5,230 bases of DNA, from IMG/VR virus record IMGVR_UViG_2713896780_000009. One strand, 5' to 3'. This document shows, piece after piece, positions 342-5,178 of the stretch. Position 1 is the first letter of the stretch, and each line of letters starts with the position of its first letter. The translations under genes and the position numbers were made by a program. The notes beneath the pieces are model-generated. The model saw only the letters and a program-made list of their open reading frames with translations, was not told where the DNA came from and searched no databases. The stretch comes from a virus. Lineage: Duplodnaviria > Heunggongvirae > Uroviricota > Caudoviricetes.

Positions 342-971
342 CCGGGACTGCAGTGTTTCCCGGACATCACCCGGTAGATGGCTGTAGGGGTTGCCATCCA
401 CCTTATGGCTGCCGCTGTAAATCAGCGTGATTTCCACGCCCTGTTTCTCCAGCGCAGCACCGTAATTACTGTGAGCCATCATGACGCCGATGGAGCCTGT
501 CCGGGCGGTCTGCGTGACCAGACGCCGGGAGGCGGCGCTGGCAAGCAGCTGACCTGCACTGCAGTTCATGTCGTTGGCCAGCGCCCATACCGGNTTTATG
601 TCACGCACACGGGCGATGATGTCAGCACAGTCAAATGCTCCCGCCACCATTCCGCCCGGTGTGTCCATATCGAGCAGAATGCCGTCCACCATCGGGTCGC
701 TGGCAGCCTGTTGCAGACGGGCGATAATGCCGTTGTAACCGGTCATCCCCGAATACGGCTGCAGCGCCCGCGTCCGGCTGACCAGCGTACCGGACACCGN
801 NNNNNNNNNNNNNNNNNNNNNNNNNNNNNNNNNNNNNNNNNNNNNNNNNCTGATCCCAAGCTGGCCTGCAAGCGCACAAAAGAAAACCCGCGCATAGGCG
901 GGTTCAAGCATCAGCGGCTCATTAAAAGCCATGCTGGCAATATGCGGGAGATTACGCAGCTCTGCTGTCAC
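1..971 (-). CDS. C: Head maturation protease / scaffold protein gpC, 5' portion only (3' end lies beyond the window start). Interrupted by the N run 800-849 and ambiguous base 594.
   Basis: Minus-strand frame (codon top position = 2 mod 3) translates from 971 as [41 protein letters not shown], then after the N run ...PVSGTLVSRTRALQPYSGMTGYNGIIARLQQAASDPMVDGILLDMDT..., and near the window start ...TQSTTVSATASQADVTDVVPATEGENASAAQPDVNAQIT, matching lambda gpC from memory. Start is GTG at 971-969, preceded by a strong Shine-Dalgarno GAGGAGGAG; the first in-frame ATG is at 932. Overlaps the B stop by 20 nt. Not in the ORF track because it runs off the window edge. Confidence 0.85.
   Translation of the reverse strand, partial: MTAELRNLPHIASMAFNEPLMLEPAYARVFFCALAGQLGIXXXXXXXXXXXXXXXXXXVSGTLVSRTRALQPYSGMTGYNGIIARLQQAASDPMVDGILLDMDTPGGMVAGAFDCADIIARVRDIXPVWALANDMNCSAGQLLASAASRRLVTQTARTGSIGVMMAHSNYGAALEKQGVEITLIYSGSHKVDGNPYSHLPGDVRETLQSRMDATRRMFAQKVSAYTGLSVQAVLDTEAAVYSGQEAIDAGLADELVNSTDAITVMRDALDARKSRLSGGRMTKETQSTTVSATASQADVTDVVPATEGENASAAQPDVNAQIT
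800..849. other. Run of 50 N (unknown sequence) inside gene C; reading frame is preserved across it.
   Basis: Direct observation of the N run. The C frame is = 2 mod 3 on both sides. Flanking residues are GIS before and PVSG after; by my recollection of lambda about 44 residues (about 134 nt) separate these, so the true gap is probably longer than 50 nt. Confidence 0.9.
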
Positions 972-2553
972 TCTTCTCCTCCTCTGTTGATTGTCGCAGC
1001 CCGGATTCAAATGCCGCAGCCGCCCAGGCGGGCGGTTTAAGACCAGCTGCGCGGCGCTCCATCGTTTCACGGACCTGCTGGGCAAAAATTTCCTGATAGT
1101 CGTCACCGCGTTTCGCGCACTCTTTCTCGTAGGTGCTCAGTCCGGCTTCTATCAGCATCACCGCTTCCTGAACTTCTTTCAGACCATCGATGGCCATACG
1201 ACCGGAGCCTATCCAGTCGCAGTTCCCCCAGGCACTGCGGGCTTCCTGAAAGCTGAAGCGCGCTTTTGAAGGTAACGTCACCACGCGGCGAACGATGGCC
1301 TCTTCCAGCCAGCACAGAAACATCTGGCTCGCCTGACGGGATGCGACGAATTTTCGCCGCCCCATAAAGTACGCCCACGACTCGTTCGCACTGGCCCGTG
1401 CCGTGGAGTAGCTCATCTGGGCGTAATTCCGGGAAAGCTGCTCATACGAGACACCCAGCCCGGCAGCGATATACCGCAGCAGTGACTGCTCAAACACGGA
1501 GTAGCCGTTATCCGTGTCCTGAGCCGTCTGCAGGTTCAGTGAGTCCCCCGGCATCAGGTGCGGCACTTTTGCGCCTCCCAGACGGACCGGTGCTGCGGAG
1601 TAATACGCGGCAATTTCACCAATCCAGCCGGTCAGCCTTTCCCGCTGCTCCTGACTGTTCGCGCCCAGAATAAAATCCATCGCTGACTGCGTATCCAGCT
1701 CACTCTCAATGGTGGCGGCATACATCGCCTTCACAATGGCGCTCTGCAGCTGCGTGTTCTGCAGCGTGTCGAGCATCTTCATCTGCTCCATCACGCTGTA
1801 AAACACATTTGCACCGCGGGTCTGCCCGTCCTCCACGGGTTCAAAGACGTGAATGAACGAAGCACGACCGCCGGGTAACTCGCGGGGTATCCATGTCCAT
1901 TTCTGCGGCATCCAGCCAGGATACCCGTCCTCGCTGACGTAATATCCCAGCGCCGCACCGCTGTCATTAATCTGCACACCGGCACGGCAGTTCCGGCTGT
2001 CGCCGGTATTGTTCGGGTTGCTGATGCGCTTCGGGCTGACCATCCGGAACTGTGTCCGGAACAGTCGCGAGGGACGGGTATCCCAGGTGGCCTGAACGAA
2101 CAGTTCACCGTTAAAGGCGTGCATGGCCACACCTTCCCGAATCATCATGGTAAACGTGCGTTTTCGCTCAACGTCAATGCAGCAACAGTCATCTTCGGCA
2201 AACTCTTTCCATGCCGCTTCAACCTCGCGGGAAAAGGCACGGGCTTCTTCCTCCCCGATGCCCAGATAGCGCCAGCTTGGGCGATGACTGAGCCGGAAAA
2301 AAGACCCGACGATATGATCCTGATGCAGCTGGATGGCGTTGGCGGCATAGCCGTTATTGCGTACCAGATCGTCCGCGCGGGCATTGCCACGGGTAAAGTT
2401 GGGCAACAGGGCTGCATCCACACTTTCACTCGGTGGGTTCCACGCCCGCAACTGCCCACCAAATCCGCTGCCACCGCCGTGATAACCGGCATATTCACGC
2501 AGCGATGTCATGCCGTCCGGCCCCAGAAGGGTGGGAATGGTGGACATTTTCAT
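952..2553 (-). CDS. B: Portal protein gpB (533 aa), complete.
   Basis: ORF track 952..2553 (-), [33 protein letters not shown]...[10 protein letters not shown], matches lambda gpB along its whole length from memory. ATG at 2553 overlaps the W stop (ATGA); the stop at 954-952 lies 20 nt inside C. Confidence 0.95.
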
Positions 2554-4658: not shown

Positions 4659-5178
4659 TCAGCAACCCCGGTATCAGTTCATCCAGCGCGGCTGCTTTGT
4701 TCATGGCTTTGATGATATCCCGTTTCAGGAAATCAACATGTCGGTTTTCCAGTTCCGGAAAACGCCGCTGCACCGACAGGGGGATCCCGTCGAGAATACT
4801 GGCAATTTCACCTGCGATCCGCGACAGCACGAAAGTACAGAATGCGGTTTCCACCACTTCAGCGGAGTCTCTGGCATTTTTCAGCTCCTGTGCGTCGGCC
4901 TGCGCACGCGTAAGTCGATGGCGTTCGTACTCAATAGTCCCTGGCTGGAGATCTGTCTCGCTGGCCTGCCGCAGTTCTTCAACTTCCCGGCGCAGCTTTT
5001 CGTTCTCAATTTCAGCATCCCTTTCGGCATACCATTTTATGACGGCGGCAGAATCATAAAGCACCTCATTACCCTTGCCACCGCCTCGCAGAACGGGCAT
5101 TCCCTGTTCCTGCCAGTTCTGAATGGTACGGATACTCGCACCGAAAATGTCAGCCAGCTGCTTTTTGTTGACTTCCAT
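4633..5178 (-). CDS. nu1: Terminase small subunit gpNu1 (181 aa), complete.
   Basis: ORF track 4633..5178 (-), MEVNKKQLADIFGASIRTIQNWQEQGMPVLRGGGKGNEVLYDSAAVIKWYAERD...[10 protein letters not shown], matching lambda gpNu1. N-terminal helix-turn-helix region is about residues 5-24 (5107-5166); GGGKG P-loop-like motif at residues 32-36. ATG at 5178 with GGA about 8 nt upstream. Confidence 0.95.
   Translation of the reverse strand: MEVNKKQLADIFGASIRTIQNWQEQGMPVLRGGGKGNEVLYDSAAVIKWYAERDAEIENEKLRREVEELRQASETDLQPGTIEYERHRLTRAQADAQELKNARDSAEVVETAFCTFVLSRIAGEIASILDGIPLSVQRRFPELENRHVDFLKRDIIKAMNKAAALDELIPGLLSEYIEQSG

Follow-up and report, generated by a model that had tools for sequence, protein, structure and literature searches.

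The 5,230-nucleotide stretch analysed here (the window) is, with little room for doubt, a module of a natural STEC lambdoid prophage and not laboratory lambda. It comprises left-arm DNA-packaging and head-assembly genes (the cosB R1 element followed by Nu1, A, W, B and C) and is an ordinary late module of such a prophage, with biology that is already known. The initial annotation had read the DNA, from a handful of residue differences, as a close natural relative of lambda (a prophage) rather than the laboratory strain or a vector derived from it; that reading stands, with one qualification, which is that the contig probably represents more than one prophage.

Origin and gene content of the module

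The reverse complement of the window is, byte for byte, the whole 5230-bp contig LEAB01000076.1 (GCA_001309815.1). The draft genome LEAB00000000 belongs to E. coli O145:NM 03-6430, which was isolated from a human and has stx1 and eae (PMC4563881); strain and accession are paired unambiguously in Table 1 of PMC6266700. The window being a contig of this strain, it is natural lambdoid prophage sequence. The assembler was ABySS 1.3.4, run on 100-bp paired reads with an insert size of 300 bp. In O145:H28 genomes lambdoid prophages are dominant, share much sequence within one strain and break up in draft assemblies (PMC7067040), and that STEC carry multiple lambdoid prophages is well documented (PMC7067040, PMC10042803). 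The genes, the packaging element and the ambiguous positions of the window are the following.

5203..5218, minus strand: cosB R1 element, a gpNu1-binding repeat, CTGTCGTTTCCTTTCT, read directly from the sequence; the name R1 is one that we take over from established knowledge of lambda cosB
4633..5178, minus strand: Nu1, terminase small subunit, 181 aa, intact (PF07471 Phage_Nu1, E 3.9e-101)
2753..4658, minus strand: A, terminase large subunit with ATPase and nuclease domains and a 50-N run inside (PF05876, PF20454)
4082..4131, no strand: 50-N run in place of 70 real bases (lambda 1238-1307, gpA residues 176-199); assembly gap
2550..2756, minus strand: W, head-tail joining protein, 68 aa, intact (PF02831 gpW, E 2.9e-37)
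952..2553, minus strand: B, portal protein, 533 aa, intact (PF05136 Phage_portal_2, E 4.9e-97)
1..971, minus strand: C, head protease/scaffold of the S49 family, with an N run inside (PF01343 Peptidase_S49, E 1e-42)
800..849, no strand: 50-N run in place of 134 real bases (lambda 4540-4673, in C); assembly gap
594..594, no strand: single N (lambda 4879), A or G depending on the co-resident copy
339-341, minus strand: nested start of Nu3 within C, placed from the lambda annotation

Nu1, A, W, B and C all match their Pfam families above the gathering scores. Their order (Nu1-A-W-B-C/Nu3), the lambda start/stop overlaps between them and their position downstream of cosB are those of a lambda-type (Lambdavirus-like) module. 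Upstream of Nu1, the remaining 52 bases of the window (5179-5230, lambda 139-190) carry no substitution at all relative to lambda, and the exact Nu1 and W alleles are each found on at least 1000 contigs (those with Nu1 being from E. coli). Scans for Rfam families at gathering thresholds and for tRNAs on both strands of the window gave no matches. The long open reading frames of the plus strand were considered and rejected: they are shadows of the five phage genes, on the antisense strand.

The reading frames of Nu1, W and B are complete, and those of A and C are broken by scaffold gaps alone. ABySS scaffold gaps have a default minimum of 50 N, which would account for both runs having just this length, and runs of fixed length of this kind generate false frameshifts: A and C look as if each were split into two frames, which is an artefact of the length of the N runs. 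In A, both halves of the gene together yield matches to PF05876 GpA_ATPase and PF20454 GpA_nuclease, and 70 bases occupy the gap in every one of the relatives compared (at least ten). A deletion or frameshift at this point was rejected, since the relatives are continuous here and the true length of 70 restores the frame and, with it, the 641-aa length of the lambda protein. The gap in C likewise spans 134 bases in all relatives compared, and at that length the frame is again restored. C is also incomplete for a second reason, the end of the contig, which leaves the first 352 of 439 codons (80%).

By analogy with the established biology of lambda, gpNu1 would bind the R elements of cosB, and the Nu1-A terminase holoenzyme would nick cosN and, by way of the gpB portal, pump the DNA into proheads whose assembly involves gpC/Nu3; gpW would then bind to the filled head once packaging is over, permitting tail joining. 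The window shows no departure from this mechanism.

Divergence from lambda and nearest relatives

In a MAFFT alignment with lambda J02459, the reverse complement of the window corresponds to lambda 139-5472, and when the two 50-N runs are counted at their true lengths the alignment is free of insertions and deletions. Of the 5129 bases that can be compared, 106 are substituted (97.93% identity): 83 of these substitutions lie in 952-5178, the span that the initial annotation had pointed to, and the other 23 in gene C at 1-951. The initial annotation had named complete identity to the reference as the outcome that would speak against it; this was looked for, and 97.93% is what was found. The scattered substitutions that it had suspected are therefore real, and so are all six of the residue differences that it had singled out. 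At the protein level there are 17 changes (lambda residue first): A75T and L132I in Nu1; N37S, T151S, H384Y, I459V and D631E in gpA; A37T in gpW; T3M, P4S, S37A, S160R, S161P and A319S in gpB; and D229G, Q244R and V260A in gpC. Both of the Nu1 differences named in the initial annotation (A75T, L132I) are on this list, as are the gpA pair H384Y and I459V and the start of gpB, which reads MKMSTIPT in place of MKTPTIPT on account of T3M and P4S. These last two changes lie within the N-terminal leader, 22 residues long, which according to the annotation of lambda is lost when B is processed.

The pattern of the differences is that of evolution. Transitions outnumber transversions 83 to 23 (a ratio of 3.6), codon position 3 takes 88 of the 106 substitutions, 89 are synonymous and 17 non-synonymous (pN/pS about 0.06), and all but two of the 106 are also present in an independently sequenced complete-genome prophage, with the remaining two seen in other assemblies. 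Third-position bias, transition/transversion ratio, pN/pS and recurrence in other genomes together exclude sequencing noise as the source of the differences. Their distribution along the alignment is roughly even: the variance-to-mean ratio is about 1.3, an over-dispersion that is not significant, so that there is no sign of a recently acquired, lambda-derived segment such as a mosaic with lambda would have. The 2% divergence reflects ordinary neutral drift in the presence of strong purifying selection, among the very numerous lambda-type head modules of E. coli. Judged by sequence, the intact frames and the pN/pS of 0.06 indicate that the five genes are functional, or were so until recently.

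The same data dispose of the notion that the window might be laboratory lambda or a lambda-derived vector (a contaminant, for example) whose apparent differences come from sequencing errors or from wrong reference residues. The exact lambda 139-5472 order and length, free of insertions and deletions, is what such an origin would give, and lambda (J02459/NC_001416) does have the gene set, order, overlaps and lengths of the window, its proteins differing by 1-6 residues each. Against it stand the 106 substitutions where an identity of about 100% would be expected, their evolutionary pattern and the recurrence of 104 of them in independent genomes. The laboratory lambda records (J02459, DE3, lambda imm434, DN1 and others) are all 97.9% identical to the window, and J02459 is further from it than are hundreds of STEC prophages, the chromosomal prophages of STEC reaching 99.8%. 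The chance that the window is laboratory lambda is accordingly negligible, and we regard that origin as already refuted by the level of identity, the substitution pattern and the recurrence.

Natural lambda-like phages such as Kati, 2H10, PhiR42_1, mEp332 and ev207 share the module at 98.0-98.9% and are intermediate between lambda and the STEC group; closer relatives exist. A search of 5426 complete E. coli genomes gives a match to the module in 4235, with 594 records at 99% identity or more. The search for the closest match that the initial annotation had proposed leads to lambdoid prophages inserted at ydfJ, with the type III effector gene nleC aboard, which differ from the window by only 8-9 mismatches (99.82-99.84%). 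Their hosts are the bovine strain 88_1577 (NZ_CP074804.1) and O145:NM FWSEC0002 (NZ_CP031919.1), the latter a human isolate from Alberta, Canada, that shares its serotype with 03-6430. The closest complete relatives of the window are thus the ydfJ lambdoid prophages of O145 and related bovine STEC. Their Nu1, A and W proteins are identical to those of the window over the comparable residues. Their portal protein has G42, whereas the window and lambda both have S42, and their mismatches to the window are clustered in two short patches, to which we return below.

It is the late module alone that makes these prophages close relatives of lambda. Their early regions are unlike lambda, with immunity of the dicA/dicB/dicC type and the nleC cargo. 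For membership in the species Lambdavirus lambda the ICTV criterion asks for about 95% nucleotide identity, taken across the entire genome; the 5.3 kb available here are 97.9% identical to lambda. Given early regions so unlike those of lambda, the nearest complete prophages are unlikely to belong to this species. The finding carries little biological weight: lambda-type head modules that are 95-99% identical to lambda are found in most sequenced E. coli.

Probable composite character of the contig

The module is a multi-copy one, with 3-5 copies per genome in the best-matching STEC genomes, and this bears on how the deposited contig should be understood. Five module copies from complete O145 genomes were compared (three of the four in RM11626-C1 and two of the three in FWSEC0002). 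Among these five copies, 10 of the 206 positions covered by N are variable, as against 65 of the 5129 positions elsewhere (Fisher p = 5e-4). In these proxy genomes all three N features coincide with sites that vary between co-resident copies: there are four such sites inside the gpA gap and five inside the gap in C, and the single N is A or G according to the copy. Both ends of the contig, in turn, directly adjoin copy-variable sites (lambda 138 and 5473), which is how a contig behaves at a branch point of a de Bruijn graph.

The mismatches to the ydfJ prophages have a structure of their own. Two patches aside, one of 103 and one of 145 bases, the sequence of the window coincides exactly with that of the FWSEC0002 ydfJ prophage. 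Both patches are defined by the pattern of ydfJ mismatches:

2328..2430, minus strand: patch in B (lambda 2959-3061), four sites, of the type of another co-resident copy
603..747, minus strand: patch in C (lambda 4726-4870), five sites, of a third copy type

The B patch is a 100% match to the FWSEC0002 copy at 4.147 Mb and to the RM11626-C1 copy at 0.598 Mb. The N run at 800-849 and the single N at 594 bracket the C patch exactly; the 205-base segment 595-799 that these features enclose finds a 100% match at 1.217 Mb of RM11626-C1, a genome in which the best match to the window as a whole lies elsewhere, at 2.937 Mb.

On the evidence of these proxy O145 genomes, the contig is probably a short-read consensus into which two, three or more co-resident prophage copies have collapsed. 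ABySS would have merged near-identical copies into one scaffold and placed N where the copies disagree, and short stretches of the contig would be drawn from different prophage copies. If several copies have been collapsed in this way, the exact haplotype that was deposited may exist in no single prophage.

The portal protein makes the point concrete. That of the window is WP_054622995.1, which differs from the ydfJ-type portal at residue 42 and nowhere else. It is recorded in about 34-39 contigs or assemblies, and all of these contigs are of 6.5 kb or less. The exact B gene is absent from all 5426 complete E. coli genomes, the best match there being 99.8%. Other short-read assemblies besides that of 03-6430 also carry the allele, a recurrence that fits a real but rare allele and a recurrent assembly artefact alike.

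The main rival to a collapsed consensus is that the haplotype is real: that the contig comes from one prophage with a naturally recombinant head module, the ydfJ prophage of 03-6430 having received by gene conversion, from two further prophages, tracts of 100-150 bp in its portal and protease genes, and that the N runs are simply stretches of low quality. Recombination between prophages within STEC strains has been reported (PMC7067040, PMC10042803), and gene conversion, a documented process between prophages, is expected to leave the same pattern, which is why this explanation is retained. The appearance of WP_054622995.1 in some 34-39 independent assemblies speaks for it, as do the borders of the B patch, which are clean and without N. 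What it leaves to coincidence is that three N features and both contig ends should fall on copy-variable sites, that the C patch should be bounded exactly by N features and that the portal allele should never be met on a longer contig or in a complete genome. We consider gene conversion the less probable account, at roughly one chance in four or a little better. If it is the right one, WP_054622995.1 is a natural portal allele shared by a few dozen STEC isolates. It competes with the collapsed consensus alone; the natural-prophage origin of the window is unaffected by the choice.

Where a collapsed consensus matters is in the use of such records. In short-read assemblies of STEC, lambda-type head modules emerge as short collapsed contigs, and the combinations of alleles that these display, as well as the protein accessions derived from them, may exist in no one prophage. 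The one thing that the window adds to what is known is this caution, that assembly may have made composites of a deposited haplotype and of the protein accession derived from it.

Relation to Stx1a-converting phages

Within the phage collection the best matches to the window are Stx1_8100 and its relatives (LC645428-LC645437), ten records of Stx1a-converting phages with lambda-type late genes that are 99.6-99.7% identical to it over its whole length. A literature search for a paper describing these LC6454xx records found none; similar O26 Stx1a phages are described in PMC10042803, where the LC6454xx accessions are not cited. With strain 03-6430 carrying stx1, and with records of this kind at the top of the phage collection, the window might be the head module of the Stx1a-converting prophage of 03-6430 specifically. 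This we hold to be improbable, more so than the gene conversion considered above. The contig, at 5.2 kb, has neither an stx gene nor an attachment site, and the non-Stx, nleC-bearing ydfJ prophages are nearer to it, with their 8-9 mismatches against 13 for the Stx1a phages (about 99.75% at best). Site by site the affinities are divided: the window is of the Stx1-phage type at lambda 5020-5418, at the C-gene end only, and of the non-Stx type at lambda 316-820 and 4726-4870.

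Contig ends and N runs

Both ends of the contig lie next to bases at which the co-resident copies, the near-identical prophage head modules within one genome, differ in complete O145 genomes. At position 1 the contig stops one base short of lambda 5473 (J02459 coordinates), which is A or T among these copies, and at position 5230 it stops one base short of lambda 138, which is A or G. Lambda 139 is also the start of SPKC01000123.1 (L008), a contig from another NCBI assembly, and three Logan contigs start at lambda 103.

The two N runs are each exactly 50 nucleotides long, the one at 4082-4131 in gene A (terminase large subunit) standing in place of 70 real bases and the one at 800-849 in gene C (S49 head protease/scaffold) in place of 134. 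Since these lengths differ, any ORF prediction made from the record gives A and C an apparent frameshift or split; the deposited annotation of the contig has gene A as two genes (176 and 442 aa) and gene C likewise (40 and 266 aa).

Separately, in the O145 RM11626-C1 copy closest to the window (L019, NZ_CP035768.1 2934641-2935958) the S49 peptidase is annotated as frameshifted, and the indel falls within the same polymorphic segment that the window represents by N.

The portal allele

The allele in question is:

955-2553, minus strand, portal protein WP_054622995.1

Whereas the exact Nu1 and W alleles of the window (terminase small subunit and head-tail joiner) are found on at least 1000 contigs, complete chromosomes among them, this exact portal allele is confined to short contigs of at most 6.5 kb, about 34 in number, which come from many separate sequencing runs. 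Such a distribution suggests collapsed-repeat assemblies as a possible source of some RefSeq non-redundant phage protein accessions.

Related prophages

Gene content was read over approximately 20 kb on each side of the head modules of the nearest complete relatives, the ydfJ prophages of 88_1577 and FWSEC0002 (L002 and L016). In both, a lambda-type late region is joined with a Qin/Rac-like early region, which comprises:

dicA
dicB
dicC
hokD
a relE/parE-family toxin-antitoxin pair

In both, nleC adjoins the tail-fibre genes; tRNA-Ile/Arg/Arg genes are present in 88_1577 only. These are typical effector-carrying EHEC lambdoid prophages.

In a related contig (L014, logan SRR15299718_513), codon 51 of gene A is a stop, where the window encodes tryptophan, and the gene is called from a later start (581 aa). 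This may reflect decay of that prophage copy, or else a mistake in the assembly.
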